Source: Candidatus Krumholzibacteriota bacterium (GTDB lineage Bacteria; Krumholzibacteriota; Krumholzibacteriia; Krumholzibacteriales; WJIX01). Taken from it: a stretch of 64,000 nucleotides of DNA. Both the position numbers and the translations under genes were made by a program. This document shows positions 915 to 47,837 of this stretch, one piece after another. Position 1 is the first letter of the stretch; each line of letters begins with the position of its first letter. The notes under the pieces are model-generated. The model saw only the letters and a list, made by a program, of their open reading frames with translations, was not told where the DNA came from and ran no database searches. The stretch lies in NCBI GenBank assembly GCA_034520215.1, contig JAXHNR010000001.1, positions 732,560-796,559 of the forward strand, read 5' to 3'.

Positions 915-940
915 TTCTAATTTAAAAAGACAAATTCTTT

Positions 941-6716: not shown

Positions 6717-6743
6717 TATTATTAACCCCGGAGAAGTAATATT

Positions 6744-13876: not shown

Positions 13877-13924
13877 TAGAATTCACCGATATTTTATTTC
13901 CCTCTACGCCGGAGTGGAATCTGA

Positions 13925-14836: not shown

Positions 14837-14837
14837 T

Positions 14838-15266
14838 ATGAGCAGCAAGAAGAAATGTTATAGTTTGCAGATGTTAGTAAGCAGAATGCTCACGGGGAAG
14901 ATAAGTCAGCTGAATTTTTTGATACTCTTAGGATTGACGGCCAGCCTCGCCATGTTATATATCGGACTTCACGTCTATTCATATTCACTTTCTGAAGAAA
15001 TAAGCGGATGTTTAAAAAAGCGCACCTTCTTAAGAGAAAAAAAGGTATGGCTGCTTGCTGATTATAACAGACTTATAGCTCCTGAAAGGATTATCCCGGA
15101 AGTGGAAAGAATGGGGATGAAGCAGGGATCGTCCATGGATGTAAACAAGCTCACTCTGTATAGGAATAAGCGGCTGTTCCGGAATGTAAGTGAAGACCCC
15201 GAGAAAGTTACGAGCATAGCCAAAGAAAAAATCTTTATTTTTGGTGATGGCAATGTGGAGAACTAA
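14838..15266 (+). CDS. ftsL: Cell division protein FtsL-like (small bitopic membrane protein)
   Basis: A single transmembrane helix (FLILLGLTASLAMLYIGLHVY) followed by a coiled-coil-like segment. It lies between rsmH and ftsI. The assignment rests on position and topology. Confidence 0.5.
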   Translation: MSSKKKCYSLQMLVSRMLTGKISQLNFLILLGLTASLAMLYIGLHVYSYSLSEEISGCLKKRTFLREKKVWLLADYNRLIAPERIIPEVERMGMKQGSSMDVNKLTLYRNKRLFRNVSEDPEKVTSIAKEKIFIFGDGNVEN

Positions 15267-18853: not shown

Positions 18854-18875
18854 GCTTGAATGGTTAGCCGAATCA

Positions 18876-22708: not shown

Positions 22709-22712
22709 TTAA

Positions 22713-25027: not shown

Positions 25028-25039
25028 AAAGAGTTATAT

Positions 25040-27161: not shown

Positions 27162-27188
27162 GAGATTGCAAGAAGGTGAGGCTGTAAT

Positions 27189-28430: not shown

Positions 28431-28431
28431 G

Positions 28432-29574
28432 ATGAGGTTCGAATTCGATGAAGGTTCTGAACTGGCTAAGATTAAGGTTATTGGTGTAGGCGGCGCTGGA
28501 GGTAACGCGGTTAACCGTATGGTAGATCAAGGACTTAAGGGTGTTGAGTTTCTGGTTGTGAATACAGACGCTCAGGTTCTCGAGTATTCAAAAGCACATA
28601 AGAAAATTCAGATTGGAAGCAATTTGACTTCGGGGCTTGGATCCGGCGGAAAACCTGAAATAGGAGAAAAGGCAATAGAAGAAGATGCCGACATTGTAAG
28701 TGAAATGCTCGAAGATTCTGATATGGTTTTCGTTACAGCCGGAATGGGGGGTGGAACCGGTACGGGCGCGAGTCCGGCAATTGCCCGTGTTGCGCGTGAA
28801 AAAGGCGCTTTGACAGTTGGAATAGTAACCATACCTTTCTCGTTTGAGGGAAAGTGCCGCCAAAAACTGGCGTTGGAGGGAATTAACAAATTAAAGGAAG
28901 AACTTGATACTTTAATTGTCATAAGAAACGACAAGCTGTTATCGCTTGTTTCCCGGGAGACCCCCCTTACGGAAGCATTCTCCACTGCGGACGCGGTTCT
29001 TCACCACGCTACAAAAGGTATTTCCGATCTTGTGACGATTCCCGGATTAATAAACCTTGACTTTGCTGATGTGAATACTACAATGAGCAAAATGGGTGAC
29101 GCGCTTATGGGTACGGGAGTTGGAAGCGGTGAAGAGAGAGCTGTAGAAGCTGCCAGATTGGCATTGAACAGCCCATTGCTCGATGACGTATCGATTAAAG
29201 GGGCAAGAGGAGTACTGGTAAATATTACTGGTGATGAGAAGATGTCGCTGCATGAAGTGTCACAGGCAACGGCAATTATCAGTGATGAGGCCGGAGATGA
29301 AGCGAATGTTATATTTGGTGCGGTGGTAAATGATAACCTTGACGGTGAAATACATGTTACGGTTATTGCAACAGGTTTTGACTCCGGCAGGTCTATCATA
29401 AAACCAACTCGAATTGATTCGGCCCGGCTTGGAATCAGAAATGAGCCCGAAGTGAGTGTTGAGAAGGACTTGGAAGATTCAGAGATTGACATTAATGAGT
29501 TTGCGAGTGTGGGAGCTTCCTCGGGAGAAGTTGACCTGGATGTCCCCACTTTTCTAAGAAAACATCATGATTAA
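28432..29574 (+). CDS. ftsZ: Cell division GTPase FtsZ
   Basis: IKVIGVGGAGGNAVNRM, the GGGTGTGASP tubulin signature, and a C-terminal conserved peptide DVPTFLRK. Confidence 0.95.
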   Translation: MRFEFDEGSELAKIKVIGVGGAGGNAVNRMVDQGLKGVEFLVVNTDAQVLEYSKAHKKIQIGSNLTSGLGSGGKPEIGEKAIEEDADIVSEMLEDSDMVFVTAGMGGGTGTGASPAIARVAREKGALTVGIVTIPFSFEGKCRQKLALEGINKLKEELDTLIVIRNDKLLSLVSRETPLTEAFSTADAVLHHATKGISDLVTIPGLINLDFADVNTTMSKMGDALMGTGVGSGEERAVEAARLALNSPLLDDVSIKGARGVLVNITGDEKMSLHEVSQATAIISDEAGDEANVIFGAVVNDNLDGEIHVTVIATGFDSGRSIIKPTRIDSARLGIRNEPEVSVEKDLEDSEIDINEFASVGASSGEVDLDVPTFLRKHHD

Positions 29575-33180: not shown

Positions 33181-35298
33181 TTGATTGGCAAGGTAATTAT
33201 GCAAAGTAATCCAAATAACAGAAATATTCTTAAGATGAGCAGCCAATTTATCAAGGGCGTTGGTCCTTCAAGACAGTTGTTACTGAAGCGGTTAGGAATA
33301 GAAACGGTAGAAGATCTTCTTATGCATTATCCCCGCGGGTATTATGACAGAAGTAATATGACAAAAATATGTGACATGGAAGTTGAGAGTGAAGCAACTT
33401 TTACCGGTATTGTTCTGGTTGTCTCTCTAAGAAAATTGCGTGGCGGAAGAACTATTTTAAAGGTAGCAGTTGGGGATGAAACCGGACGAATAGACCTGGT
33501 TTTTTTCAATCAACCCTTTCTAAAGAAGAAATTCCGTCAGGGCAGAAAAATTATTGTCAGCGGAACGGTAAATCTATACAAAGGAGTAAAGCAGATTTCA
33601 GCCCCTGATTTTGAGTTTTATTCAGATGATCTTAACGGCGAATTTATACATACGAGCAGAATTGTTCCGGTATATCCGCTTACTTCTGGAATTTCCCAGA
33701 GAATGATGAGAATAATCATCAAAGCCGCTCTCGCGAAAGCAAAAGGAAGGATAGAAGAAAACATACCAGAGCCGCTGAGAGATTCTTTGAAATTTGTGGG
33801 ACGGGAAGAGTCTTTACGGCAGATTCACTATCCTGAAACATTTCAACATTTTGACGAGGCGGTCCGAAGGTTGAAATTTGAGGAAGTCTTCTTTATTCAT
33901 CTTTTATTGAAAATGAGGAGGAAGAAGATTTGTGAGAATAAACCCCGGCCTAAAATATCGCCTCCGTACGGTTTACTTAAGAAATTTCTTAAATCTCTTC
34001 CCTTCAGGCTTACAGAAGCTCAGAAGAAGGTTCTTCATGAAATAAGGGCCGATGTTGAAAGTAGCGGAGGGATGGGAAGACTGCTGCAGGGCGATGTTGG
34101 TTCAGGGAAGACGATAGTGGGGTTAGCTTCCATGATAATGGCTGTTGATAGCGGATATCAAACAGCGCTGATGGTGCCGACGGAAATATTGGCCCGCCAG
34201 CATTATAAAAAAATAAAGGAATATCTTAAAGATTTACCTATAAATGTGCGGCTTTTAATCGGTGCGTTAAAAAGGGAAGAAAAAGAAAGATTATACTCTG
34301 AACTGGAGCGAGGAAGTATTGATATTATTATAGGTACTCAGGCTTTGATACAGGAAGGCATATCTTTTAAACAGATTGGATTGGCTATTATAGATGAACA
34401 GCACAGATTTGGTGTTAAACAGAGAGCGAGTCTTGGCAAGAAAAATGAATTGCCCCACTTTCTTGTTATGACAGCAACACCAATTCCCCGTAGTCTCGCG
34501 CAGATAGTGTACGGGGACCTCAAATTATCTGTTATCGACAGTTTTCCTTTCGGCAGAAGAGAAGTTAAAACAAAACTCATTAAAGAGGAGGCTAAAAGCG
34601 AATGTTATTCCTTAGCGCGTAAATTATTCAGGGAAGGAAGGCAGGCTTTTATAGTATATCCAGTCGTGGAAGACACTGACAGAAGTGACTTGAAAGCGGC
34701 AACTGCTGAGTTCGAAAGACTCCAGAGGGATGTGTTTAGTGATTTTCCTATCGGTCTTCTTCACGGAAGGATGAGTTATGAGGAAAAATCGAAAGCGGTA
34801 GATATGTTTGTAAAGGGTGAAATAGCCGCACTGATAACAACTACTGTTATTGAAGTTGGTGTTGATATTCCAAACGCTTCATTGCTGATCGTAAACAACC
34901 CCGAAAGATTCGGACTTGCTCAGCTTCACCAGCTGAGGGGAAGAATAGGAAGAGAAGGAAAGGAAGGGGTTTGTTTTTTAATTTCAGGTGAAAATATTGG
35001 GGAGAACAGCTTGAATAGACTTAAGTTCTTCACTGAGACAAATGATGGATTCGCGGTGGCTGAGAAGGACCTTCAGCTCAGAGGACCGGGTGAAATATGG
35101 GGATTCAGGCAATCCGGATATCCGCTGTTTCGTTTGCTAAACCCAATCAGTGACAATATGATAGTAAAGCGATCGTGGGAAGAAAGTGACAAATTACTTG
35201 AGACTGATCCGTATCTGAATAAACCGGAAAACAGAGTTGTAGAGAAATATTTTCGATTGTACTATAAAGAACGAATGGAAATTGCTGAAATTGGATAA
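33181..35298 (+). CDS. recG: ATP-dependent DNA helicase RecG
   Basis: Wedge domain (…[25 protein letters not shown]…), helicase motifs [15 protein letters not shown] and HQLRGRIGR. The true start is probably at about 33235 ([11 protein letters not shown]). Confidence 0.9.
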
Positions 35299-35328
35299 TT
35301 AAAATAACTTCAATTATGGGAGGTAATT

Positions 35329-35877
35329 GTGATTTCGAGAGAAGAAGCACTGAAACTGGTTGAAGAACATATGACCAACAGGAATCTTATTAAACATGTT
35401 CTTGCGGTAGAGGTGATTATGAGGTCTCTGGCGGACAAATCTGACAAAGATCCGGATGTCTGGGGACTGGCAGGTTTGCTGCATGATCTGGACTATGAAA
35501 GTACGAAGGAAAACCCCGAAAAGCATGGATATAATACATTAAGATTACTTGAAGGGCTGGATATTTCAAATGAAATAAAACACGCTATATTAGCTCATGT
35601 GGGGCATGTTGAACCAGAATGCCTAATGGATCATGCTATATACTGCAGTGACCCTGTGACTGGCTTGATTGTTGCATCAGCATTAATGCATCCTACAAAG
35701 AGTCTTTCAGGAATGGATGAAGAGTTTGTGGGAAGACGCTTTAAAGAAAAAAGATTTGCCGCGGGAGCCGATCGTGAAGCAATCGCTAGTTGCAGTGAAC
35801 TTGGAATTGAGTTGCATGATTTCCTGCATCTTTCGCTAAAAGCAATGAGAGGCATCTCAGATGATTTAGGATTGTAG
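35329..35877 (+). CDS. HD-domain phosphohydrolase (YqeK/HDIG-like)
   Basis: H…HVLAVE…LAGLLHDLD shows the metal-binding H…HD…D pattern of the HD superfamily. Length is 182 aa. Confidence 0.6.
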   Translation: MISREEALKLVEEHMTNRNLIKHVLAVEVIMRSLADKSDKDPDVWGLAGLLHDLDYESTKENPEKHGYNTLRLLEGLDISNEIKHAILAHVGHVEPECLMDHAIYCSDPVTGLIVASALMHPTKSLSGMDEEFVGRRFKEKRFAAGADREAIASCSELGIELHDFLHLSLKAMRGISDDLGL

Positions 35878-35907
35878 ATGTGAGCTGGATTCAAAGGAGC
35901 CTTATCA

Positions 35908-36483
35908 ATGATTGTTGCATGCAATGAATGTGAGACGAAATACAGCCTTCCGGACGAGAATGTGCCCGAAAAGGGAATTCGCGTACGTTGTCCAAAATGT
36001 AATTTTGTGTGGAAGCTTAAAGCTGTCCATTCAAGCATACCGGATTTTGACAGGAGCAAGGGTGGTTTTAACGCCGAGTCTTCTCAAACGGTTAACGCCG
36101 AGGTCTGGAGTGATGAAATAGAGGATAAAGGGGTTTCATCCGGCGGGGAAATGGAAAGTGGATCTAGTTTCGAAGAGGTTGATCTCGAAGAGCGCGCCCC
36201 TTCCGAAGAGCGCGTTGATCAACAAGATACAAATGAAGAGAGGAATAAGAAAGAAAGGGTGAAAAGACTTGCCAGAGTTTTTGTAAGTGATATACTTGTC
36301 TATAATCAGGAAAAGAGAGACAAAGCACTTTCTGAAGGAAACCTGATGTCAGCTCTTGGACCTGAGATTAAAAAAGGCTGGGAGGGTTACAAGGGGAAAA
36401 TTGGACCCGGAATAGCCCACTCAAGTGATTATTTTAAAGATGCCCTCAACGAAATTCTCGCGGATGGGCAGAAGATTTTCTAA
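35908..36483 (+). CDS. MJ0042-type zinc-ribbon protein with a charged C-terminal domain, function unknown
   Basis: The N-terminus CNECETKYSLPD…RVRCPKCNFVW is a CxxC…CxxC zinc ribbon. It is followed by an acidic linker and a conserved-looking C-terminal segment. Confidence 0.4.
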   Translation: MIVACNECETKYSLPDENVPEKGIRVRCPKCNFVWKLKAVHSSIPDFDRSKGGFNAESSQTVNAEVWSDEIEDKGVSSGGEMESGSSFEEVDLEERAPSEERVDQQDTNEERNKKERVKRLARVFVSDILVYNQEKRDKALSEGNLMSALGPEIKKGWEGYKGKIGPGIAHSSDYFKDALNEILADGQKIF

Positions 36484-37315
36484 CGATGTGGATAAAGTTC
36501 TGATTATCATTCTAAACCTGAATCCGGAACTTCATTTAGAGTTTTTTAGAAAAATGGAATTACCGGATAATGTTGAAAAGAATTCCTATACTACTTTCCC
36601 TCGATTTCTAAAAGCCTTGCAGAAGGTTAAGAGAAAATCGCCCAGGGTTATTCTGTTCTTACCTCAAAAAAGGTTTAATCCCTCAAAACTTCGTCAGATT
36701 TGCCTTTTACTGATCGATACACCCGTGCATATTGTGACTGACGAGTGTGATGAAAGGACTTATCTTACATATATGTCCGCTGGCATTAAGAATATTATTA
36801 CTCCTCCTTTCAGCGAGAGTGATTATCAGTATCTTGTCGATGTATCCGATCAGGACCACCTGTATTTTCCCCGTAATAGAGAGTTGATAAGGGAAGGTCA
36901 GATTCGTCTGGATTTTCTTATACCGAGCAAACTGTCGAGGATTGTCGGTGTAAACCGCCTTGTTTCATTTTTGACCGCCGAAGCTGGATTTGCCCCGGAA
37001 GATTGCAGGGTAAACCTTCCAATGGTCATGGACGAAGCCTTAAGCAACGCTATTATTCACGGTAATAGTAACAAGAAGGAACTCAAGGTGCACATACGGA
37101 TTTATATAAGTATCAACCGTGTGATCATTCAGATAGAAGATCAGGGTGTGGGATTTGACCAGGACAAGATCGAGGATCCCACCGGTGAAGGAAAGATCTA
37201 CAATGATTCCGGAAGGGGTTTATATATTATAAAGGAAATCATGGATCGTGTCGCTTTCAAGAATGGCGGACGGGTAATTGAGATGGAAATGAGCAACAAA
37301 AACGCCAAAAAGTAA
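36425..37315 (+). CDS. Degenerate receiver-like domain fused to an RsbW/SpoIIAB-type HATPase_c (anti-sigma-factor-like serine kinase)
   Basis: The C-terminal N-box EALSNAIIHGN and G-boxes (DQGVGFD, GRGLYIIKEI) match GHKL ATPases of the RsbW type. The N-terminal half has a CheY-like beta-alpha pattern but lacks the canonical acid pocket. The start is uncertain (36464 or 36554 are more likely than 36425). Confidence 0.45.
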   Translation: MIILKMPSTKFSRMGRRFSNDVDKVLIIILNLNPELHLEFFRKMELPDNVEKNSYTTFPRFLKALQKVKRKSPRVILFLPQKRFNPSKLRQICLLLIDTPVHIVTDECDERTYLTYMSAGIKNIITPPFSESDYQYLVDVSDQDHLYFPRNRELIREGQIRLDFLIPSKLSRIVGVNRLVSFLTAEAGFAPEDCRVNLPMVMDEALSNAIIHGNSNKKELKVHIRIYISINRVIIQIEDQGVGFDQDKIEDPTGEGKIYNDSGRGLYIIKEIMDRVAFKNGGRVIEMEMSNKNAKK

Positions 37316-37467
37316 TTTAGATTCAAATGTGATCATCAGGCTGTAATTCTGAGAATTTTCTAATGTCAAGAATAATAGAGGAAACATAAACACCGGAAGC
37401 AAGAACGTTAGTTACTTTTACATTTGTGTTTATGGTGACTCATAGATTTGCCTTGAATGGATTAAGT

Positions 37468-37908
37468 TTATTTTTCTCCCCATTTTTCCTTTGTTATTTT
37501 CTTAAGCAGACTATCAATCTGAGTGCGTATTCTTATATTCTGGTCGGGTTCAAATAGAGCTTTTTTGACTCTGCCCTCATGGTCTTTCTTGACGTATCTT
37601 AGTGCTTTAATATTTTCGAGAGGTGTTAGTATATCCTTACTCACTCTGACTTCAATGCTTTTGTCATCGAGGTTTTTATTCGGACTGTTATACGGGTGCA
37701 TTCCCATTCCCCATCCATGAACGAACATGCTGCATATAATTGCTCTGAAAGTATTCTGTTTTTGGACTGAATCCAAATCAAAAGTTTCCTGAAATTTGTC
37801 AATCATTCCATCTATAATAATTCGGAGTTTCTTTATTTTCTTTTCATCCGGTTCAATATTAAGAAGGCGCTGGAAAACCTCTCTTAATATCTTTTCTGTA
37901 ATTTCCAT
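37468..37908 (-). CDS. Hypothetical protein (146 aa)
   Basis: ATG at 37908 preceded by an AAGGAGG ribosome-binding site on the - strand. No recognisable domain. The ORF-track call to 38031 lacks a ribosome-binding site and is probably an over-extension. Confidence 0.4.
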   Translation of the reverse strand: MEITEKILREVFQRLLNIEPDEKKIKKLRIIIDGMIDKFQETFDLDSVQKQNTFRAIICSMFVHGWGMGMHPYNSPNKNLDDKSIEVRVSKDILTPLENIKALRYVKKDHEGRVKKALFEPDQNIRIRTQIDSLLKKITKEKWGEK

Positions 37909-38138
37909 TCGAAACCTCCTTAGTATTGAAATAAAGAGTAAAGTTAGATATTCATATTGAACAACAAGCAAAAAAGAGACCAGATAACAATCTCGAACCG
38001 GGATATAATACCGTTCGAATAATATCACCATAAAACAATTGCCGCAAAATTCACTTCAAGAAAATATATTGAAGATAATGTTATAAATGGCATATTTCTG
38101 GCTTCGTTCAGTGTAAGGTAAAGCGGAAGGGAGTATCA

Positions 38139-38549
38139 ATGCAGCTTTGTGATGAAAAAACAATTTTTATGCAAAAAGCCATTTATTACGTTACCAGTCT
38201 GGTTGCCGCGAGAGGAATTGTAGAATTAACAGACAGAAACCTTAATTTTCAAGTTTCAGCGCTGGATTCGTCTTTTGGATTGAAAAATGTTTCATTGGAT
38301 GTTTGTACGATATCTTCCGTTAGAATAGCCGGAGGAAATCTGCGTCCGGCTATAATCATAACTGTAGCTGACAAGGATTATCAATTTGTACTCCCAAACG
38401 CATCGGTATTATATGACCATTTGTATGTACTCAGGAATAATCCGGTTAAAACCTTCTCGTCAACGAAAGATTCCCTTTTTGAGTGTGAATGCGGAAAAAG
38501 GTTCAGCAAAAGTTATAGATATTGTCCCTGGTGCGGCAAAAAATCATAG
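38139..38549 (+). CDS. Hypothetical protein with a C-terminal zinc ribbon (CECG…CPWCG)
   Basis: The ORF carries a C-terminal CxC…CxxC motif. The N-terminal part may be a small PH/GRAM-like beta-sandwich, which is a guess. Confidence 0.35.
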   Translation: MQLCDEKTIFMQKAIYYVTSLVAARGIVELTDRNLNFQVSALDSSFGLKNVSLDVCTISSVRIAGGNLRPAIIITVADKDYQFVLPNASVLYDHLYVLRNNPVKTFSSTKDSLFECECGKRFSKSYRYCPWCGKKS

Positions 38550-38671
38550 AAGCCCCCTCTATATGTATATTTTTTGTTTGTATGTTCCATCCAGATTCAT
38601 TAATTTATAGATGAGATATAATATTGACCATATACTGGAGATTCAGATACTTGGTTCATACGGAGGTTGTA

Positions 38672-39454
38672 ATGAGGCGGATTATATTACTATTTGTCGG
38701 ATTAATTTTTCTTTTGGGATGTGAGGAAGAATCAGTACAGAAAATAGATCCTTATGCAACCGAGCTGGGAGATGAAAATGCCGGCGGCTACGTTGTGATT
38801 AGGGGAGAAAATTGTTATCCAATAGGATTATATATTCATATTGATCATGATACAGTTCCCTTTGGAATGATTTCCTCCGATGAACCCGCTTTATTGAACC
38901 TGTCTCCGGGAACGCACCATCTTTCAGTTAAAAGCAACGGCGGCGTTATAGTTTTTGATGATGACGAAAATCCTATTTCCAAAGTCTATATGCAATGGGA
39001 CAAGGAGATTGAGGCTGAAGCTGATTACGCGCCCCTGGTACCGCTGGATTGTGACAGCGCTGTACTTGATTCAGTGCCTTGGGAAGATGACGGATATGAA
39101 GAGAATGACAGATACAGCGCCGCATATGATTTAACTGGGGATGAAGGCAGAAAGCTCGATTTGATCGATGGCAATGGAATGCAATTCGATGATGACTGGT
39201 ACGAGATATATGTGGCTTCGGGTGATACTCTAGTTGAAGTTACTTGTGAATTTACCCATATTAGAGGGGATATAGATATAGAACTTTATGATTCTTTAGT
39301 TAATGTTGTTTCTTCTTCTAATTCCTCAGCACCGGGCTCAGACAATGAGTTCATAAGTTGGGTTGTTTCATCGGGCGGAACTTACTATATCAGGGTATAT
39401 GGAGATGACTCTGGTAATGAGTATAACCTGTTGTGGAACAGTCTTTCTCCATAA
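38672..39454 (+). CDS. Lipoprotein with a C-terminal PPC (pre-peptidase C-terminal)-like domain
   Basis: Lipobox LLGC (MRRIILLFVGLIFLLGCEE). The C-terminal DDDWYEI…GDIDIELYD…GTYYIRVYG resembles the PPC/collagenase beta-sandwich. The start is taken at the internal Met; the ORF-track start at 38624 is upstream of the signal peptide. Confidence 0.45.
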   Translation: MRRIILLFVGLIFLLGCEEESVQKIDPYATELGDENAGGYVVIRGENCYPIGLYIHIDHDTVPFGMISSDEPALLNLSPGTHHLSVKSNGGVIVFDDDENPISKVYMQWDKEIEAEADYAPLVPLDCDSAVLDSVPWEDDGYEENDRYSAAYDLTGDEGRKLDLIDGNGMQFDDDWYEIYVASGDTLVEVTCEFTHIRGDIDIELYDSLVNVVSSSNSSAPGSDNEFISWVVSSGGTYYIRVYGDDSGNEYNLLWNSLSP

Positions 39455-39484
39455 GAACCGAGAGCGATTTAAAGTTGTACGTAT

Positions 39485-39526
39485 ATATGCAACGCTGACC
39501 TCCGTCAGCGTTGCATATTTTTATTT
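39485..39526 (+). terminator. Rho-independent terminator (perfect 15-bp stem, 4-nt loop, T-tract)
   Basis: ATATGCAACGCTGAC-CTCC-GTCAGCGTTGCATAT followed by TTTTTATTT, about 30 bp after the stop of the 38672-39454 gene. Confidence 0.65.
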
Positions 39527-39854
39527 GTACTTATATAAATATGCCTCGTGACTCAGGCCGTATTATCATTATTATTCGCATTTTAAGAGATTTTCAACTC
39601 CGTTCGTTGAATCTGCTTGAGCGGAAATGGTATCATCCATTATAACTCATTGTTATAGAATGGATTATAGAAAACAACATAGCATTTTAGTGGCATGATA
39701 TTTGCTTTACTGTCATTGGAGCCGGAACTGTAAGCTTTCAGGTGATTACAACACTTTGACAGGAAATGCTTGAATGCCGCGGTTATGATTCAGCATTCTA
39801 GAGAATTACTAAAGCGGACAGTAGCATCTGCATAGGACTTGAGGATTAATTATT

Positions 39855-40973
39855 ATGGCTGTTTATAATATCAGGAATGAAGAAGTAACCGTTAAAATCG
39901 TTTATTATGGTCCGGGATTAAGTGGAAAAACAACAAACCTTGAACATATCTACTCGAAATTGCCCAGAGAAAACAAGGGTAAAATGGTTTCCATGAAGAC
40001 CAGAACGGACCGTACCCTGTTTTTTGATTTTCTCCCAATGAAAATCGAACATCTTAACAATACTTCAGTCAAATGCCTTTTATACACAGTGCCGGGCCAG
40101 GTATTTTACAATGCCACCCGCAAACTTGTTCTAAAAGGTGTAGACGCGATAGTATTCGTCGCGGATTCCTCTTCGGGTAAAATGGATGACAATCTGGAAA
40201 GTTTGGAGAATCTGGAAGAAAATCTTCGCCAAATAGGCAAGAATCTTGACGAGATACCCTGGGTTCTTCAATATAACAAACAGGATATTGACGGAGCATT
40301 AAACAGAGATATAATGGATGAAAACTTGAACAAATCTCATAAAATGTCTTTCGAAGCGGTTGCCACGAAAGGTAACGGTGTGTATGAGACATTTGAATCC
40401 ATTGTAGGTCTGGTTATGAGAAGTATAGAAAAAGATATATTGAGTAATAGATCCATCAGCTCTAAAAAAACTCATGGTAGTGAAAATAGAGAAGAAAAGA
40501 TAGAAGTTGACGCCGAGGTTGTGCCCAATTCGAAGTTGTATGATATCAGCTCAGAGGCGGATGAAAGTGAGTCTTTAAATAATAGCGCAGAGGAGAAAAA
40601 AGAGGAGCATGAGTCTGTCTCTGAGTTTGTTGATAATGTGCTCAGCGAAAATGAAGAAAGCGCTGAGTTTGAATCTTTAACAGGTGAATATGGAAATCAA
40701 GGCCATGTTGTAGAATTCCACGATGACAGAAATAATACACCCGAGCAGAGAAGAGAGAAAAAGGAAAATTCTGTTGCCACGGAGTTTATAAATGATCCGC
40801 TCGAAAGACTTGCTCATCTGGGGCAGGAGTCAAACGAGGAAGAAAAGGACGACAAAGAAATTGCCGATTTACATGAACCTGAAAATACAGTAAGAATACC
40901 GGTTAAACTATCAAAAACCGATTTAGAAAATCTTTCAAAGCTGCATATAATTATTGATTTATCAGCTGAGTAA
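39855..40973 (+). CDS. mglA: MglA-family Ras-like GTPase (mutual gliding-motility/polarity GTPase) with a roughly 175-aa acidic low-complexity C-terminal extension
   Basis: The first about 195 aa match Myxococcus MglA nearly motif for motif: KIVYYGPGLSGKTTNL (P-loop), TDRTLFFDFLP (switch I), the MglA-specific TVPGQ replacing DxxGQ, and YNKQD (NKxD). Residues 200-372 are Glu/Ser/Asp-rich. Confidence 0.8.
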   Translation: MAVYNIRNEEVTVKIVYYGPGLSGKTTNLEHIYSKLPRENKGKMVSMKTRTDRTLFFDFLPMKIEHLNNTSVKCLLYTVPGQVFYNATRKLVLKGVDAIVFVADSSSGKMDDNLESLENLEENLRQIGKNLDEIPWVLQYNKQDIDGALNRDIMDENLNKSHKMSFEAVATKGNGVYETFESIVGLVMRSIEKDILSNRSISSKKTHGSENREEKIEVDAEVVPNSKLYDISSEADESESLNNSAEEKKEEHESVSEFVDNVLSENEESAEFESLTGEYGNQGHVVEFHDDRNNTPEQRREKKENSVATEFINDPLERLAHLGQESNEEEKDDKEIADLHEPENTVRIPVKLSKTDLENLSKLHIIIDLSAE

Positions 40974-41077
40974 CATTTCCAGTAAAAAATAACAAAAAAA
41001 CACTTGACCATTTAATGATTTAATACAAATATTGGAGTGGGGGAGAAGTGTGTTAATGGAGTTTAGAAGGGTGAGAT

Positions 41078-41437
41078 ATGTCTAAAATACTTGTTGTAGA
41101 TGACGAAATTAATGTAAGGAAACTCTACAAAGAAGAATTTGAAAATGAAGGGTATGATGTAGTTTGTGTTGGCGATGTCAAAGGTGCTATTGATTCAGTG
41201 GAAAACGATTCACCCGATCTTATTATTCTCGATATAAAGCTTGAAAATGAGAGCGGAATCGACGCACTTGTACAAATTGTAGAAAGGCGAAAAGACATTC
41301 CGGTAATAATAAATTCCGCGTATTCTGTATATAAAGAGAATTTCAAAACCTGGGCTGCCGATGCCTATATAGTTAAATCTGTTGATTTTGAGCCCCTGAA
41401 AGAGAAGGTAAAAGAATTACTCCAAAAACAGAAATGA
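41078..41437 (+). CDS. Stand-alone CheY-like response-regulator receiver domain
   Basis: ILVVDDE…, phospho-acceptor Asp in LIILDIKL, conserved S/T (INSAYS) and K (YIVKS). At 119 aa it has no output domain. Confidence 0.75.
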   Translation: MSKILVVDDEINVRKLYKEEFENEGYDVVCVGDVKGAIDSVENDSPDLIILDIKLENESGIDALVQIVERRKDIPVIINSAYSVYKENFKTWAADAYIVKSVDFEPLKEKVKELLQKQK

Positions 41438-41444
41438 GTCTGCT

Positions 41445-41882
41445 ATGAAGATTCGATTACTGTTAATTCTTCCATTTCTGATTAGTTTATTCTCAGCGTC
41501 TACTAACGCGCAGAATAGAGATATACAGCCAAGTATCTTTTCTGATTATCTGAATAATGCCGTAACAGACGGGTCTATCTGTATACCCGGTCTTGATTTT
41601 AAGAGTTCGATGGGTGTTTCATTCGCCTCAAACGGGAATCAATCTCAAAGCCTGGGTTACTATATGGGACATTTTAACTACGGTTTTGGTCAATCATGGG
41701 ATTTGAATCTTGATGTAGGTGTGCGTTCTGTTTTTGGACAACAGACACAGGGGGCTTCTCCTGAAGTTTTTGTCCCAAATATTGACCTTACATACAATCC
41801 CCCGGACAGCAATTTTATGCTGCGGCTGCAGTTTCGTCAGTATAGATCTCTTTTCGGATATAGATACAGTCGGTGGAGATAG
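41445..41882 (+). CDS. Small secreted protein, possible outer-membrane beta-strand protein, function unknown
   Basis: Signal peptide MKIRLLLILPFLISLFSASTNA, alternating aromatic/polar pattern, C-terminal …FGYRYSRWR. Confidence 0.35.
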   Translation: MKIRLLLILPFLISLFSASTNAQNRDIQPSIFSDYLNNAVTDGSICIPGLDFKSSMGVSFASNGNQSQSLGYYMGHFNYGFGQSWDLNLDVGVRSVFGQQTQGASPEVFVPNIDLTYNPPDSNFMLRLQFRQYRSLFGYRYSRWR

Positions 41883-42170
41883 TCGCGGTATTTATTATAT
41901 ACGTTTATTTTATAAATTTCTTGAAAAAGCAGGCACCCTTCCTTTAGCGTAGATGCCAGTATTTAAGTGGACTTATTGAAGTTGGTTCCTTATCCCAGGC
42001 CGATTTATTCCATAGAAGAGTATTTGGTTTTTTCCCATATTGCGGTAAATTAGTTTGATAGGTGTAGAAATTGAGGCGGCAGAGGATTATATCCAAATGG
42101 TTGAATTTCTGTAATCGTAGGCTGTTTTGAAAGACAATCAAGGAGAGTTGAGGATGAAAGGGTATATATT

Positions 42171-43214
42171 ATGTATAAACGTTTTATAAGAGATCCGTTA
42201 ACTGTCAGGATTTTTGTCAAAATTGTACTTGCCTCTGCCGCGGCATTTATTTTCTTTAGTTGTTCCGAGGACAGTACTGAACCGTCCAATTCTGTTCCAG
42301 AATTGACTACTGCTGAAGTTATTGATATAACAGGTACTACCGCGAAATGCGGAGGAGTGATTACCTCTAGTGGAGGAGCAAGTGTTACGGCGCGGGGAGT
42401 ATGCTGGAGTGTTGAAGAGCTACCCTCCCTAGAGGATAGTACGACAAACGACGGGACGGGGGCAGGCAGTTTTACCAGTGAAATAACAGGGCTGACAGCT
42501 GAAACTGATTATTATATAAGGGCGTATGCAGTAAACAGCGCTGGAACAGGTTACGGAGACACAAAGGAGTTTTCTACTACAGTATTCGGTACCGTGACGG
42601 ATATAGACGGCAACATTTATGAAACAAGAAAAATTGGGAATCAGTGGTGGATGACAGAGAATCTTAAAGTAACCCATTACTTGAACGGGGATTCGATAGC
42701 TGAAGTAGAAGACGGAGCAGTATGGGATGGTCTGGCAGGTGGCGCGTGCTGCAATTACGACAATAATGCAAGTTACATAGTTACTTATGGAAAACTATAC
42801 AACTGGTTTGCTGTAAATGACAGCCGTGGTTTAGCCCCCGAGGGCTGGCATGTGGCAAGCGACGCGGAATGGCAGGAATTAGAAATCTTTATGGGTATGG
42901 ACCCTTCAGAAGCTGCAGATACGGGATATCGCGGAACGGATGAAGGTGGCAAACTAAAGGAAGCCGGAATTGAAAATTGGGCAAGTCCCAACACCGGAGC
43001 TACTAATGAAAGCGGTTTTACGGCTTTGCCGGGAGGTTACCGGGGGCTTGGTGGTGATTATTCTAGTATCCACAACTCCGCTTTATTATGGGTTACTACA
43101 TCGATAACTGAAACTTTCGCCTGGAGTAGAATGCTCAGTTCATCTGATGGATACATTACGCGTACTGGTAGAGATAAGAATTCTGGTTTTTCGGTCCGCT
43201 GTGTAAAAGATTGA
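42171..43214 (+). CDS. Lipoprotein with a Fibrobacter succinogenes major paralogous domain (Fib_succ_major, TIGR02145)
   Basis: Lipobox FFSCSED and an Ig/Fn3-like N-terminal domain. Hallmarks: GNIYETRKIGNQWWMTENL, KLYNW.A, PEGWHVASDAEW, and the terminal GFSVRCVKD. Confidence 0.7.
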   Translation: MYKRFIRDPLTVRIFVKIVLASAAAFIFFSCSEDSTEPSNSVPELTTAEVIDITGTTAKCGGVITSSGGASVTARGVCWSVEELPSLEDSTTNDGTGAGSFTSEITGLTAETDYYIRAYAVNSAGTGYGDTKEFSTTVFGTVTDIDGNIYETRKIGNQWWMTENLKVTHYLNGDSIAEVEDGAVWDGLAGGACCNYDNNASYIVTYGKLYNWFAVNDSRGLAPEGWHVASDAEWQELEIFMGMDPSEAADTGYRGTDEGGKLKEAGIENWASPNTGATNESGFTALPGGYRGLGGDYSSIHNSALLWVTTSITETFAWSRMLSSSDGYITRTGRDKNSGFSVRCVKD

Positions 43215-43375
43215 ATCATCGCCCGCATACTGTTACAAATCATCGACTGCCTTATAGGTTATAAAAATTGGAGAAACTCCAAAATATAAATAGACTTGAC
43301 AGTTGTTGTGTATCTGCTTTAGTTTTCGGATAGATATGTGCCGCGCATCAATATGATTTCCTGATTGGGGGTGCT

Positions 43376-44539
43376 ATGAAGCTGCGTTGGGAGAAGTTGC
43401 TTGAGCTGGCCCGGGGAACGGAAAAGCAAAGCAAAAAAAACAAATATTCCACGTCTGAAAAGGAACTAGTTGAAGGAAAAACAACACCTGAAGAAATACT
43501 TTCCTTTGCCGAAGAACTACTCGAGAGAAAAAAAAGGAGTGAAGCTGAAGAATTATTCATTAATCTTATATCAAACCCGGATATTAGCGAATCAAATCTG
43601 GCAAAGGTATGTGGTCTCCTTCAGGAAATCGGTAATTACGAGGCGGCTTATAAGGGTTATTCAGAATTAAGAAGAAGAGATGAAATGAACGCCCACCCGA
43701 TTTATTGTATGGGTAAAATTTTTGAGATTGAGGGCAAGTTATCAGACGCTATAAGATTGCACCGTGAAGCTATATCCGTAGAGCCCGGCAATCCGGAGTG
43801 TTATTTCAGGCTTGGAGTGGCATATACAAAAAACCATCAGTACGAAGAAGCTGAAAAGTGTTATAGACAGGCAATCACACTTGATCCTACTCATTCTAAA
43901 TCATATACAAATCTTGGCTATATACTCGATATGCACGGCAAACAGGATGTTGCCATGCAGCAATTTCTAAAGGCAGTCCAGCACAACCCAAAGAGCGCGG
44001 AGGCTCATTTCAACCTCGGCGCTCTCTTCGGGGATGACGGAAACAAGCAGCAGGCTATTAACGAATTCCGTGTCGGACTTGAACTTTCACCGACCTGTGT
44101 TGAAGGACGTTACAACCTTGGAATGGCACTTGTTAATGAAGGTCATTATGAAGAGGCGATGGAGGAATTTAAAAAGATTTTAAAGATTGAACCTGATAAT
44201 GTTAATGCTTTCTTCTATATAGGATATTTATACTTTCGTAAGGGCCTCTATGGAAAGGCGCTGAATTATCTTCGGCGTGCTTCAGAGTTAAATCCAGGAA
44301 ACACTAAAATACTGTTTTACGTGGGGGAATGCTTTAACAACTTGGAGCGTTCCGAAGAAGCACTTGGATATTATAAAGAAGTTGTTAATATAAACCCCCA
44401 TGACAAGAAAGCCTATTTCAGTCTTGCTGTAACGTATGAAAAACAGGGGTATATGGGCAAAGCCCGTGAGTGTTATAAAAAAGCGGCCAGTGGAAGGGAT
44501 GTGAGGCAGAAATCGATAAAAAGAGGAATTCTCGAGTGA
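43376..44539 (+). CDS. TPR-repeat protein
   Basis: Multiple canonical TPR units (…AHFNLGALF…, …GRYNLGMAL…, …AFFYIGYLY…). Confidence 0.6.
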   Translation: MKLRWEKLLELARGTEKQSKKNKYSTSEKELVEGKTTPEEILSFAEELLERKKRSEAEELFINLISNPDISESNLAKVCGLLQEIGNYEAAYKGYSELRRRDEMNAHPIYCMGKIFEIEGKLSDAIRLHREAISVEPGNPECYFRLGVAYTKNHQYEEAEKCYRQAITLDPTHSKSYTNLGYILDMHGKQDVAMQQFLKAVQHNPKSAEAHFNLGALFGDDGNKQQAINEFRVGLELSPTCVEGRYNLGMALVNEGHYEEAMEEFKKILKIEPDNVNAFFYIGYLYFRKGLYGKALNYLRRASELNPGNTKILFYVGECFNNLERSEEALGYYKEVVNINPHDKKAYFSLAVTYEKQGYMGKARECYKKAASGRDVRQKSIKRGILE

Positions 44540-46095
44540 AATCCCGATTTAAATCTGGGTTGCTGTTTTTACTTGTCGGGTGTATTTTTGTCATCCCTCC
44601 CATGAAGCTAAGCGGTTCCGACGAAAATATCAGCCCCGAAAGCTGGGTTTATTCCGCCCTTCGGACATTTGAACTTATAGGGTTAGTCCATCTCTCCCCG
44701 GAAATGCCCTATTCACGAAATAAAATCGAATTCTATCTGGATAGAATATTGCAGAATTTAAAAGATTCTGACAGTCGACTGAGCCCAAGACAGAACTTTT
44801 TACTCCGGCGGTTGAGGCAGGAGTTTCAGGGAAAGTCCCACAGGCCTCGCGACCGAGAAGACGCCCCCGTGTGGTTATACCAGAAGGGAAGAAGATTTTT
44901 GAGTTTTGATATGAGCGCCGGTATGTCTTTAAGAAAAAGAATAGAATACAGAAAGGGTGAACTCGACGGACTTCTTTCACCGGATATTCTGATAGATTCG
45001 GGAGGCGGCTTCACGTATGAAACGGTTTATAAATTAAGATTGCGCCCCGAATGGAATAATAATGTTACACATAGTAGAGTAAATGCCAGAGAGAAGAGTT
45101 TCAGGGGGTTAACATCTGAGTTTGAAAGAGGGTATATTTCAGTGCATCGTAATTGGTGGGGTGTTACACTGGGCCGCGATTACATTCACTGGGGCAACAG
45201 CAGGGATGACGGTTTGATTCTTTCATCCGGCGCCGGCCCGCTAGACCATTTGAGTGCATACATGGAGCTCGGGGTCTTTAAACTGAGTTTGCTTCATTCT
45301 ATCCTTGATTCAGATGCGGTTGATCCAAGGAAGCTCTCAGGACACAGGTTGTCTGTTAAGCTTCCGGGAGATATATACATTGGAATAAGCGAGACAGTTG
45401 TTTATTCGGGCAGGGGACTGGATTTTGCCTACCTGCTGCCGGCCGGTTCATATTACGCCAATCAATATAATGAAAATGAAAATAAGTGTAATAATATTTT
45501 GTGGGGGGTTGACTGGAAGGTACCGGCTTGCAGAGGGTTGCTCTTTTACGGCGAATTCCTTGTTGATGATTTTCAATATGAGAACAGAGATACAGCTCCA
45601 GACAAGATCGCGTTGAATTTGACTGCCGAGGCACTCCTTGTGGCTGGTGGACACGATATCGAGGCGCTGTTTGATTACACATATATAGGTATTTATACAT
45701 ATTCACACACCGGTTCTCTGACTGTATACACAACGGGCAGTGGCGATGATACGGGTACAGGCAGAATTATCGGCTCTTACCTGGGGCCTGACGCGGACAG
45801 GTGGAGATTTCGTTTTTCGGCCGCTCTCAGTCCGAATATAGTTATGAAATTAAACGGGAGTTACAGCAGATATGGAGAGGGCAATGATTTGCGTCCCTGG
45901 AGCGCGGAGGAGCATGAACCTGATCTGCCCTTTCCAAGCGGACTTGTAACTGAGGAAAAAGAAATATCAATTTCAGCTTCGTTTGATTTTACGGGCGGGT
46001 CTATTCTTTACGCGGGGACGGGAATGAGGTGGCTCGATTCTGACCTTTCTGAATCTGAGGGATTTGCTTATCTTAAATTATTGTTGGATATCTAA
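44536..46095 (+). CDS. Wzi-like capsule-assembly outer-membrane protein (Caps_assemb_Wzi family)
   Basis: Signal peptide. The N-terminal helical motif WVYSALRTFELIGLVHLSPEMPYSRNKIEFYL parallels E. coli Wzi LRNDLAWLSDRGVIHLSLSTWPLSQEEI. The remainder is beta-barrel-like. Overlaps the upstream gene by 4 nt. Confidence 0.5.
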   Translation: MKSRFKSGLLFLLVGCIFVIPPMKLSGSDENISPESWVYSALRTFELIGLVHLSPEMPYSRNKIEFYLDRILQNLKDSDSRLSPRQNFLLRRLRQEFQGKSHRPRDREDAPVWLYQKGRRFLSFDMSAGMSLRKRIEYRKGELDGLLSPDILIDSGGGFTYETVYKLRLRPEWNNNVTHSRVNAREKSFRGLTSEFERGYISVHRNWWGVTLGRDYIHWGNSRDDGLILSSGAGPLDHLSAYMELGVFKLSLLHSILDSDAVDPRKLSGHRLSVKLPGDIYIGISETVVYSGRGLDFAYLLPAGSYYANQYNENENKCNNILWGVDWKVPACRGLLFYGEFLVDDFQYENRDTAPDKIALNLTAEALLVAGGHDIEALFDYTYIGIYTYSHTGSLTVYTTGSGDDTGTGRIIGSYLGPDADRWRFRFSAALSPNIVMKLNGSYSRYGEGNDLRPWSAEEHEPDLPFPSGLVTEEKEISISASFDFTGGSILYAGTGMRWLDSDLSESEGFAYLKLLLDI

Positions 46096-46910
46096 TGAGA
46101 AAAATTCTGAGTCTCTTTTCTATATTCAGATTACATAATATAGCCGCGGCAGTCATGGCTGTTGCCGCGGGTTTCTCAATGGGCGGGGGTGAACTGTTTC
46201 CGATGATGCTTCTCTGTGCCGTGGCATTAACAACAGCCACGGGCAATGTTATAAATGATTATTACGATCTTGATATCGACAGAGTCAATCGTCCTAACAG
46301 GCCCCTTCCGTCTGGTATCTTGTCGAGAAGACAGGCTCTTTACCTGTATATCAGTCTTTTGGCATTTCTCAGTTATATTTTAACCGATTTCAAATCGGAA
46401 GTAGTAATTTGGATAATTGTCTGGGTTGTTTTACTTCATCTATATTCCCGAGTTTTTAAACGTCGATATATGATCGGGAATTTTGTTGTGTCATCTGTTA
46501 CCGGATCGGGACTTCTGCTTGGTTCGTACTGTGGAGGCAACATTGAAGCGGGTATTATTCCGTCTTTATTTGCCTTCTTATTTATTTTTGGAAGAGAGAT
46601 CGTTAAAGATTGTGAGGATATAGAAGGCGATTATTTCTTCGGATCAAAGACAATAGCGATTATTATCGGGAAGAGAAGAGCTATGAGAATTGCGGCTGTT
46701 ATTTTTCTGCTTCTGATATTTGCTTTTCCTATTCCTTTTTTTATCGGGATTTACAGCAGGGTCTATTTTTTTATAATTATCTTTTCGATTATACCCATAC
46801 TTATAATATCTTTTCTACTGGCGTATAGGGCGAAACGCCCGGGATTTATTAGTTTACTTCTGAAGATTGGACTATTTCTTGGAATTATAGCTTTCTATTA
46901 CGCTGTATAA
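46095..46910 (+). CDS. UbiA-family membrane prenyltransferase (closest by motif to digeranylgeranylglyceryl-phosphate synthase-like enzymes)
   Basis: First Asp-rich motif NVINDYYDLDIDRVNRPNRPLPSG and second motif EDIEGD. At 271 aa with about 8 transmembrane helices. Confidence 0.7.
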   Translation: MRKILSLFSIFRLHNIAAAVMAVAAGFSMGGGELFPMMLLCAVALTTATGNVINDYYDLDIDRVNRPNRPLPSGILSRRQALYLYISLLAFLSYILTDFKSEVVIWIIVWVVLLHLYSRVFKRRYMIGNFVVSSVTGSGLLLGSYCGGNIEAGIIPSLFAFLFIFGREIVKDCEDIEGDYFFGSKTIAIIIGKRRAMRIAAVIFLLLIFAFPIPFFIGIYSRVYFFIIIFSIIPILIISFLLAYRAKRPGFISLLLKIGLFLGIIAFYYAV

Positions 46911-47012
46911 TATTATGTTTAATATTTACATCAGCGAACGGTATCTCCTGTAATTGTTCAATGCGGGATTTGTTTTTCTAATTGCTGATTTACCGGGAAG
47001 CAGGGTGTTTTA

Positions 47013-47837
47013 GTGTTCCAATTTCTTATTGTTATTATTCTCGCGGTAATACAAGGGCTGACGGAATTTTTTCCCGTAAGCTCTTCGGGCCACATAGTCT
47101 TGTTTAAAACAATTCTTGGAAGTGAAGGCGAAATGATCTTCCGGAACGGGATTATTTTCGAAGCTGCCGTTCATGTGGGTACGCTCGGCGCGGTTATAGT
47201 TGTATACAGGAGAAGACTGCTCAACTTATTCAAGGCGATTATATTATGGGCGCGAGGAGGGTTTAGAAGAAAAGAAGGTTTTAGCGATGATATTTCCTAT
47301 GTGGGATGGATTATATTGGGAAGTATTCCGACAGGGGTATTTGGTATAGTATTACATGATACTGTATCGAAGGCTTTCAATATGCCGTTACTTGTAGCAG
47401 TTTCGCTGATTATTACAGGGGTTTTCTTATTATTTGCCAGGGGGAAAGAGGGCAGCGGGGAATTTACTCTGGGAGTTGTATTATTAATAGGGATGGCTCA
47501 GGTGATAGGAATTATCCCCGGTTGTTCCAGAAGCGGGTGGACTATTACAACAGCGCTTCTTTTAGGTGTAGGGTTTAAGAGGGCGGCTGAATTCTCATTT
47601 TTATTATCTGTGCCGGCTATTATAGGTGCTTTTCTGTTTGAATGTCAGTATTTGGAAAATAGTTTGACTAAGGTCTCCATTGTTATCCTTCTTGTGGGAA
47701 GTGTGACGGCATTTCTTGCAGGTTTAGTAGCGTTGAGACTCCTTCTGCACATACTTAAAGAAGGATCCTTCCATCGTTTCTCGTACTATCTGATTCCCGC
47801 CGGGATAATATCCGCGGGCTGGCTTTATTATTTTTAA
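47013..47837 (+). CDS. uppP: Undecaprenyl-diphosphate phosphatase UppP (BacA)
   Basis: GTG start. LTEFFPVSSSGHIVL and the …PGCSRSGWTIT motif are diagnostic of BacA/UppP. Confidence 0.9.
   Translation: MFQFLIVIILAVIQGLTEFFPVSSSGHIVLFKTILGSEGEMIFRNGIIFEAAVHVGTLGAVIVVYRRRLLNLFKAIILWARGGFRRKEGFSDDISYVGWIILGSIPTGVFGIVLHDTVSKAFNMPLLVAVSLIITGVFLLFARGKEGSGEFTLGVVLLIGMAQVIGIIPGCSRSGWTITTALLLGVGFKRAAEFSFLLSVPAIIGAFLFECQYLENSLTKVSIVILLVGSVTAFLAGLVALRLLLHILKEGSFHRFSYYLIPAGIISAGWLYYF

Follow-up and report, generated by a model that had tools for sequence, protein, structure and literature searches.

We analysed a stretch of 64 kb from a Candidatus Krumholzibacteriota genome (contig JAXHNR010000001.1, positions 732,560 to 796,559), referred to here as the window, which contains a gene for the small GTPase MglA at 39855..40973 (+, the end coordinate counting the stop codon). 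MglA is a model for the Ras-like switch that sets bacterial cell polarity. The analysis showed that this gene, which encodes 372 amino acids (aa), is a vertically inherited member of a distinct subfamily of "tailed MglA" proteins, found throughout Krumholzibacteriota and in Latescibacterota. Judged from sequence, the G domain is a canonical Group-1-type MglA with all catalytic elements intact. It carries a C-terminal tail, about 170-400 aa long across the subfamily, that comprises an acidic amphipathic helix, a strand-like G-H/R-x-V-E-L motif, an F-I-x-D-P-L/M motif and a C-terminal element of about 30 residues. We lean modestly towards the reading that this protein is an MglA switch that has its own docking tail, with several motifs, and that it works together with a RomX-domain protein encoded nearby.

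The G domain of the tailed MglA

The G domain comprised residues 1-195 (39855..40439, +). Residues 2-193 were aligned without gaps both to Myxococcus xanthus MglA (5ymx_A, E 7.6e-60) and to Thermus thermophilus MglA (3t12_A, E 1.2e-57), which bore out the preliminary description of this segment as a near-canonical MglA with a TVPGQ switch II. The open reading frames (ORFs) were also as described, with 372 aa at 39855..40973 and 119 aa at 41078..41437, both on the plus strand and 104 bp apart.

Conservation was counted in alignments of 30 and 113 tailed MglA sequences. In the 113 sequences, the five residues T78-V-P-G-Q82 (TVPGQ, 78-82), which form the MglA version of the G3 motif with Thr replacing Asp (TxxGQ), were all invariant. 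The intrinsic arginine finger R53 in switch I (TDRTLFFDF) and the catalytic glutamine Q82 were kept in 113/113 sequences, and G21 was kept in 108/113. The P-loop G19-PGLSGKT-T27 (GPGLSGKTT) and the NKQD motif at N141-KQD144 were present, with G19, G24-N28, N141, K142 and D144 invariant. These results indicated that the features of a Group 1 MglA, namely G-domain similarity, TxxGQ, R53 and P-loop/NKxD, were all in place. At 372 aa, the protein lies outside the single-domain size range of 150-240 aa used by Wuichet & Sogaard-Andersen 2015. AlphaFold2 (AF2) was run on the full-length protein with the 113-sequence alignment; the predicted local distance difference test (pLDDT) was 88-96 across residues 91-190 and 51-89 around the switch regions within residues 1-90.

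A conserved acidic tail with four motifs

The tail comprised residues 196-372 (40440..40970, +) and was assigned as mostly disordered on the basis of composition, AF2 modelling and charge-hydropathy. Its 177 residues contained 26.6 % D+E and 11.3 % K+R, with a net charge of -27. D+E+S reached 38.4 %, so the acidity noted earlier held, whereas the figure of 40 % or more Glu/Asp/Ser was slightly too high. On the charge-hydropathy plot, residues 196-342 fell on the disordered side and the last 30 residues on the folded side. In the full-length model, pLDDT was below 50 at residues 206-249, 265-316 and 321-342, and a short helix was predicted at 255-263. The tail was also modelled alone, which gave no global fold (predicted template modelling score, pTM, 0.18) and the same short helices. 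The pLDDT of the helix was about 55 in the full-length model and about 61 with the tail alone, and that of the last 30 residues was 64-72 and 74-84, respectively. No match was found for the tail among PDB sequences (E <= 10), and in a Pfam search (E <= 1) with 28 tails no family matched more than one member.

The mean frequency of the most common residue was 0.51 in the tail and 0.81 in the G domain, indicating that the tail was less conserved and yet not random. In both alignments, conserved blocks alternated with variable, indel-rich linkers. The first motif, M1 (AEEKKEEHESVSEFVDNVLSE, 40587..40649, +), was recognised as an acidic amphipathic helix from its conservation and from the AF2 helix at 255-263; it had the consensus AEEREEEHESVSEFVDxVLxE, with A245, S254, V255, S256 and L263 invariant in 113 sequences. 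The remaining motifs were recognised by conservation. M2 (TGEYGNQGHVVEF, 40680..40718, +) had the consensus GYEEYGHxVEL; G283 was invariant, and Y282, H284, V286 and L288 were at least 90 % conserved (113 sequences). M3 (EFINDPLERL, 40782..40811, +), with the conserved block FINDPLE, contained D314 and P315, at least 90 % conserved in 113 sequences, and I312, conserved to this level in the 30-sequence alignment. M4, the C-terminal element (ENTVRIPVKLSKTDLENLSKLHIIIDLSAE, 40881..40970, +), was additionally marked by its pLDDT and charge-hydropathy and had the consensus VRVPVxLSxEEI...KVILxIxV, with P349 invariant in the 30-sequence alignment and at least 90 % conserved in the 113. Further conserved blocks were VEVVA and NSE-x-x-ESES. 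The earlier view of a tail lacking any predicted fold was therefore accurate for most of its length, which is disordered, but it passed over the conserved motifs and the moderately confident last 30 or so residues.

Tailed MglA proteins in two phyla

Homologues of the full-length protein were searched for in 5.8 billion protein clusters, and the best 120 matches were evaluated. These were 363-450 aa long, covered 86-100 % of the query at 46-98 % identity and came from several data sources; several of them were labelled Candidatus Krumholzibacteriota or Latescibacteria. When the tail-only alignment was scanned against one genome per species, 43 species genomes were found to carry the same single ORF, nearly all of them labelled Krumholzibacteriota or its classes. 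We also read 48 related loci, each with 10 kb on either side, of which 45 were from Krumholzibacteriota and 3 from Latescibacterota (L046-L048).

When a tail profile was run against 1.84 billion representative proteins, only 27 matches were obtained. Those outside the Krumholzibacteriota family were MglAs of 480-591 aa and shorter, apparent fragments of such proteins. The best 120 relatives of one such long MglA were almost all 362-591 aa in length, with one entry of 295 aa, and the named members among them were labelled Latescibacterota or Latescibacteria. The Latescibacterota tails, of 200-400 aa, had long Pro/Ala/Gln-rich linkers and contained the same four elements in the same order, with SDAVDxAFREV as the counterpart of M1, DVGRLVELD of M2, EFITDPM of M3 and VPVVISRSQVxKTxPLKLxLEIxVxDD of M4. 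By these motifs, two little-studied phyla of the FCB group have in common an MglA with a four-motif tail, in which change has been confined to the linkers.

The survey of homologues for similar tails proposed in the preliminary description thus recovered a large tailed family. The same description had placed the C-terminal extension outside the described MglA family. This was correct in that the classification of Wuichet & Sogaard-Andersen 2015 left out sequences longer than 240 aa, and it is because of this cut that the tailed form is missing from the described family and that an entire architecture escaped the reference census of prokaryotic small GTPases. Among its relatives, however, the tail is usual and defines the family. 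The top-ranked results of a full-text literature search contained no mention of MglA together with Krumholzibacteriota or Latescibacterota.

An artificial fusion near 40.44 kb, in which a frameshift or mis-assembly joined mglA to an unrelated low-complexity ORF, had been named as a possible source of the tail. The sole hint of such an origin was the acidic, low-complexity composition of the tail. The G domain and the tail lay within one uninterrupted ORF in 45/45 Krumholzibacteriota loci, which are independent assemblies, and this result excluded the artefact. It was further contradicted by conserved motifs that extended to the very C-terminus, by more than 120 full-length homologues from several data sources and by the same architecture in a second phylum, and we regard its probability as negligible.

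In two loci, L024 (9323-11527) and L043 (9380-10654), the mglA frame appeared run-on or disrupted, and it was not possible to delimit the tail or the start. These irregularities are probably assembly or frameshift problems of those metagenome-assembled genomes.

A Zn-ribbon-RomX fusion upstream of mglA

The preliminary description proposed a search for a RomX homologue, and one was found 3.4 kb upstream of mglA. The ORF at 35908..36483 (+), first annotated as a Zn ribbon only, encodes a 191-aa fusion in which an acidic linker connects a Zn ribbon to a RomX domain, as assigned from PDB matches and invariant residues. Residues 114-185 matched residues 5-76 of RomX without gaps (8zna_A, a three-helix bundle, E 3e-9). 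The N-terminus matched the Zn ribbon of GltJ (7zok_A, E 4e-4) and also a 49-residue chain deposited as "Uncharacterized protein" (2nb9_A, E 0.012). The four Zn-binding Cys residues were invariant in 31/31 sequences.

In M. xanthus RomX, helix 1 (R11, R14, D19) serves MglA-GTP binding and exchange activity, and helix 3 (R76, W87) binds the receiver of RomR (bioRxiv 10.1101/2024.02.20.581209). The equivalents of the helix-1 residues, R120, R123 and D128, were kept in 32/32 sequences, including those of Latescibacterota and M. xanthus RomX itself, so the MglA-binding residues were intact. The acidic patch of MglA that faces RomX was also largely kept: position 108 was D, E or G, position 112 was D or E, and E115 was present in 107/113 sequences. 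At the other end of the domain, 31/31 fusion homologues stopped 6 residues past the aligned region (..ILADGQKIF), and the segment with W87 was absent; the helix-3 receiver interface defined by R76 and W87 was not found. The fusion gene was present in every locus long enough to hold it, in both phyla. Given these matches, the RomX domain of the fusion is the best candidate for a reader of the GTP state.

In GltJ, a disordered linker contains one short motif for which MglA-GTP competes with the Zn ribbon (PMC11135422). By analogy, the Zn ribbon of the fusion is a reasonable candidate for a reader of a tail motif.

The question of MglB and of a fold-back tail

MglB was sought with M. xanthus MglB (identical to 6h5b_B), Thermus MglB and a two-sequence hidden Markov model, with filters off, among 7198 stop-to-stop ORFs from the window and the 45 Krumholzibacteriota loci and then in the 3 Latescibacterota loci. 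No MglB-like ORF was found: the best E was 2.3 in the window, 0.69 in the 45 Krumholzibacteriota loci and 1.9 in the 3 Latescibacterota loci. PF03259 was not on record for the called genes within 10 kb in L001, L002 and L046-L048. The coupled arrangement, with mglB within four genes of mglA, is usual and not obligatory; it was seen neither in the window nor in the 48 loci, in agreement with the earlier remark that mglB is not adjacent.

In the solved complex, the interface with MglB is formed by the beta2 strand of MglA; an allosteric pocket of MglA (L64, I67, K181, K185) takes up the acidic MglB C-terminal helix, which promotes exchange (PMC6785124). The switch I / beta2 face is where MglB binds in both Myxococcus and Thermus. 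In the tailed MglA, the switch I / beta2 segment KMVSMKTRTDRTLFFDFLP, which covers this strand, was almost entirely invariant in 113 sequences. Conservation of this kind indicates that some partner still uses the switch I / beta2 surface.

The tail could instead act in cis, with one or more of its elements folding back on the G domain in a nucleotide-dependent manner, either like the C-terminal switch of Ran or as an in-cis copy of the MglB C-terminal helix that boosts nucleotide exchange. Either version would partly free the GTPase from dependence on MglB or on an exchange factor for guanine nucleotides (GEF). M1 (HESVSEFVDNVLSE) does resemble the C-terminal helix of MglB (FAEISDDDIDNLFSE, checked against 6h5b_B), pocket positions 64 and 67 stay hydrophobic (V/I and I/L), position 185 was K or R in 76/113 sequences, and mglB is not nearby. 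However, K181 of the pocket was replaced by E in 108/113 sequences, and because of this Glu the likeness between M1 and the MglB helix was kept only as a lead; a short acidic amphipathic resemblance could also arise by chance. AF2 docked neither the helix nor the C-terminal element on the G domain, and comparison of the full-length and tail-alone models gave no sign of docking. For both elements, the full-length pLDDT given above was not higher than that with the tail alone (55 vs about 61; 64-72 vs 74-84). Since the tail elements were no more confident with the G domain present, the fold-back found no computational support, and neither did the proposal of an auto-inhibitory element. We consider a cis switch unlikely, and partner binding, which had been proposed alongside auto-inhibition, is the most plausible role of the extension.

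The adjacent receiver

The gene that follows mglA encodes a stand-alone receiver of 119 aa (41078..41437, +; PF00072, 1.7e-21); among solved structures, it is closest to TrrA of Thermotoga (3a0r_B, E 8.8e-27), likewise a stand-alone regulator. A receiver homologue followed the tailed mglA in 45/45 Krumholzibacteriota loci, at a median of 105 nt from the mglA stop to the receiver start (range 29-218), and D8, D9, D52, S80, Y82 and K100 were invariant in 37/37 distinct sequences. The description of an adjacent 119-aa receiver with an intact phospho-acceptor was thereby extended to all these loci. D8, D9, D52, S80 and K100 supply the acidic pocket, the phospho-acceptor Asp and the conserved Ser/Thr and Lys of a phosphorylatable CheY-like receiver. 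The receiver is in turn followed, in 45/45 loci, by a gene for a 145-aa protein with a signal-like N-terminus (41445..41882, +), which is translationally coupled to it: the first possible start lay at a median of -4 nt relative to the receiver stop, i.e. the genes overlap. No Pfam family was found for the 145-aa protein (E <= 1).

In the Latescibacterota, the receiver homologue was absent in 3/3 loci. Neither the receiver nor the 145-aa protein followed the tailed mglA there; directly after it stood a gene for a TPR protein (E 1e-85 to 1e-90 to that of the window). Tailed MglAs thus occur where no receiver does, and therefore the receiver is a lineage-specific addition and not the general reason for the tail. 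We infer that the operon gained the receiver, and the secreted protein co-translated with it, in Krumholzibacteriota specifically.

These results bear on the idea of a receiver-gated polarity switch, in which the phosphorylated receiver would bind the tail or the G domain as a minimal module of the MglA/RomR kind. Adjacency in 45/45 Krumholzibacteriota loci and an invariant phospho-acceptor set are consistent with it, a consensus scan found no terminator between mglA and the receiver gene, and proteins of the RomX type bridge MglA-GTP and a receiver (bioRxiv 10.1101/2024.02.20.581209). The Krumholzibacteriota-specific tail segments VEVVA and NSEADESES could also be receiver-specific. On the other side, the Latescibacterota MglAs carry the same tail motifs without an adjacent receiver, which left receiver gating unsupported as an explanation of the tail. 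The receiver gene overlaps the secreted-protein gene (median -4 nt) and yet lies about 105 nt from mglA, helix 3 of the RomX domain is missing its receiver-binding end, and the TrrA-like receiver lacks a RomR output region: at 119 aa it consists of the receiver domain only, with neither the Pro-rich linker nor the Glu-rich output that follow the receiver in RomR. We judge receiver gating to be improbable. The earlier comparison with MglA/RomR logic remains a fair analogy, given the RomX homologue with its intact MglA-binding residues.

Conserved gene order around the tailed mglA

The order recG / (HD) / Zn-ribbon-RomX / HATPase_c_2 / 146-aa ORF (minus strand) ... tailed mglA was common to both phyla. 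The order TPR / Wzi / UbiA / (BacA) / valS was likewise conserved downstream of mglA (window 33181-47837 vs L046-L048). Inserted into this shared order in a lineage-specific manner were, on the one hand, MFS, GT4 and LpxL-like genes and, on the other, the genes for the receiver and the 145-aa protein. The conserved order spans the housekeeping genes recG, valS and uvrB. The locus thus forms part of a gene order that both phyla have kept and is not, as had been supposed, self-contained. The TPR protein (387 aa, 43376..44539, +), whose homologue lies directly downstream of the tailed mglA in Latescibacterota, is by analogy a candidate partner of the tailed MglA.

Promoter and leader of the tailed mglA

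The preliminary description of a non-coding leader behind a strong terminator was partly upheld. The terminator is real: an intrinsic terminator of the upstream lipoprotein gene, with a 15-bp stem followed by the T-run TTTTATTTGT, was located at 39485..39518 (+), and about 336 nt separate it from mglA. This leader is not empty, however, and contains a sigma54-type -24/-12 element, TGGCAT-GATAT-TTGCT, at 39691..39706 (+), 148 nt before the mglA start codon. It was the only match in the 64-kb window, against 0.12 expected, and has the form of a sigma54 promoter (-24 TGGCAC, -12 TTGC, an exact spacing of 5 nt and a position upstream of a gene). A perfect TGGCA[CT]N5TTGC was found in 44/44 loci with an identifiable start codon, including 2 from Latescibacterota, at 145-168 nt from the ATG and at 81 nt in four loci. 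No gene with a Sigma54_activat domain turned up in the scanned ORFs of the window.

The segment from the promoter to the start codon (39707..39854, +), a putative 5' untranslated region, was conserved in most relatives and diverged in the window and in L003. The leader of about 150 nt contained the conserved blocks GCCGGGGTGGG ... CACCCTAGCTC ... CCTGCTCCGG ... GAGCGGGA ... CCCGCCCCGGC. RNAalifold on the leader alignment predicted a long-range stem and inner helices (e.g. L002 9842-10003), with 84 % of cells paired compared with 41-49 % in slid controls. The covariation score was 0.194 compared with 0.055-0.095 in slid controls, 12 pairs were changed on both sides, and the observed score was reached by 0/500 shuffles. 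Single-sequence stability was unremarkable (z +0.52 for the window leader and z -0.94 for the leader of one relative), and Rfam gave no meaningful match on the window, its leader or that of one relative. Collectively, the alignment, with moderate support from covariation, suggested that the leader is probably structured in most Krumholzibacteriota relatives; it may be a cis-regulatory RNA.

Proposed mechanism and comparison with known systems

In Myxococcus, disordered regions of RomR and GltJ act in trans as the adaptor. In the proposed docking-tail mechanism, the G domain would cycle between GDP and GTP as MglA does, the RomX domain would read the GTP form, and the tail would be a docking arm, flexible and multivalent, by which partners or a cellular address are tethered to the GTPase. 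The Zn ribbon of the RomX fusion and the TPR protein are candidate tail partners, joined in Krumholzibacteriota by the receiver, whose addition may bring a phosphorylation input. We infer this mechanism, and the candidate partners are concrete and testable.

Several points weigh against the docking-tail reading. The RomX domain lacks the helix-3 segment (W87) for receiver binding, and the fusion gene lies 3.4 kb from mglA with opposite-strand genes in between. Conservation of the switch I / beta2 segment makes it quite possible that mglB is present elsewhere in the genome. The synteny may reflect retained gene order rather than functional coupling. The readers of the tail motifs are candidates only, proposed by analogy, and structural claims about the tail are weak, given the low AF2 confidence of its models.

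A bolder version of the docking tail was also considered, in which the tail is a cis-encoded substitute for the disordered output of RomR and/or the acidic C-terminal helix of MglB. The protein would then be an all-in-one polarity GTPase that directs itself to a place in the cell and adjusts its own exchange, with the Zn-ribbon-RomX protein as reader and without a Roadblock GTPase-activating protein, switched on only under sigma54 and leader-RNA control. We regard this version as distinctly unlikely.

Compared with the MglA/MglB/RomR/RomX module of M. xanthus, the tailed system shares a gapless G domain with the same catalytic residues, a nearby RomX-domain protein with the MglA-GTP-binding residues, and a receiver protein. 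The M. xanthus MglA is 195 aa long, whereas the protein described here has 372 aa and a conserved disordered tail, and no mglB lies within the 64 kb. Here RomX forms a fusion with a Zn ribbon and is without the end of helix 3 that binds the receiver, a bare 119-aa receiver without the Pro-rich and Glu-rich output region stands in place of RomR, and the promoter is of the sigma54 type.

MglA-family members without an adjacent mglB have been counted before, as 59 orphans (PMC4316618). Re-purposing of the MglA of Bdellovibrio bacteriovorus for the control of predation has been reported (PMC3983030). This protein and M. xanthus SofG resemble the tailed MglA as MglA-family GTPases without an adjacent mglB; neither is described with a four-motif acidic tail. 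Bdellovibrio MglA has lost the equivalent of Gly21, whereas G21, R53 and Q82 are all kept in the tailed MglA. With GltJ of M. xanthus and the ZitP-PopZ system of Caulobacter, the tailed system shares a Zn ribbon of the ZitP/GltJ type, here in the RomX fusion. Unlike in GltJ, the disordered, motif-bearing region sits on the GTPase itself, there is no GYF domain or membrane module, and binding by the Zn ribbon is putative. Flexible C-terminal segments that control partner binding or localisation are also found in eukaryotic GTPases, as in the acidic tail of Ran and the hypervariable regions of Ras and Rho. The present tail, at 177 aa, is much longer, lacks a lipidation motif and contains other motifs, and no homology is implied.

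The regulation of MglA is debated, both as to whether RomR/RomX acts as a GEF or as an effector and as to the role of the MglB C-terminal helix. With the tailed family, nature provides a comparison by which the interactions essential to the MglA switch can be sought. The same G domain, a conserved disordered arm, RomX fused to a Zn ribbon and the lack of a nearby mglB point to a rearranged polarity switch, on which the conserved sigma54 promoter and leader form an unexpected layer of control.

Other genes in the neighbourhood

The gene that overlaps the RomX-fusion gene encodes an RsbW-like HATPase_c_2 protein (36425..37315, +), which was noted as conserved context only. Its N-terminal half was tried as a pseudo-receiver equivalent to RomR and was rejected (hhalign probability 0.2 %). 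Adjoining it in both phyla is the gene for the 146-aa protein (from an internal Met, 37468-37908, -), which matched its Latescibacterota homologues at E ~1e-55 and had no credible match in Pfam (E <= 1) or PDB. Two further genes were detected only in Krumholzibacteriota loci: one for a 136-aa protein with a C-terminal CxxC...CxxC Zn ribbon (38139-38549, +) and one for a lipoprotein (38624-39454, +), which has an extra PPC domain in the window. The 136-aa protein and the lipoprotein N-terminus had no credible match in Pfam (E <= 1), and none of the conserved neighbours (the 146-aa, 136-aa and 145-aa proteins and the lipoprotein N-terminus) was Roadblock-like. Between the genes for the 145-aa and TPR proteins lies a gene for a Fib_succ_major-domain protein (PF09603, 2.4e-51; 42171-43214, +), whose occurrence in only the closest relatives (L003-L005) suggests a recent insertion.

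No pilus or gliding genes were found in the window. In the Latescibacterota locus L047 (1-1729, -), pilO and a secretin gene of a type IV pilus lie about 8 kb upstream of the tailed mglA. Farther from mglA in the window, mraZ (PF02381) is followed by a long run of ORFs on the same strand (13442-29574, +), which looks like a dcw division and cell-wall cluster, and a polysaccharide-biosynthesis cluster lies at 183-11989; the ORFs scanned in these two regions were mraZ and those of the glycosyltransferase cluster.

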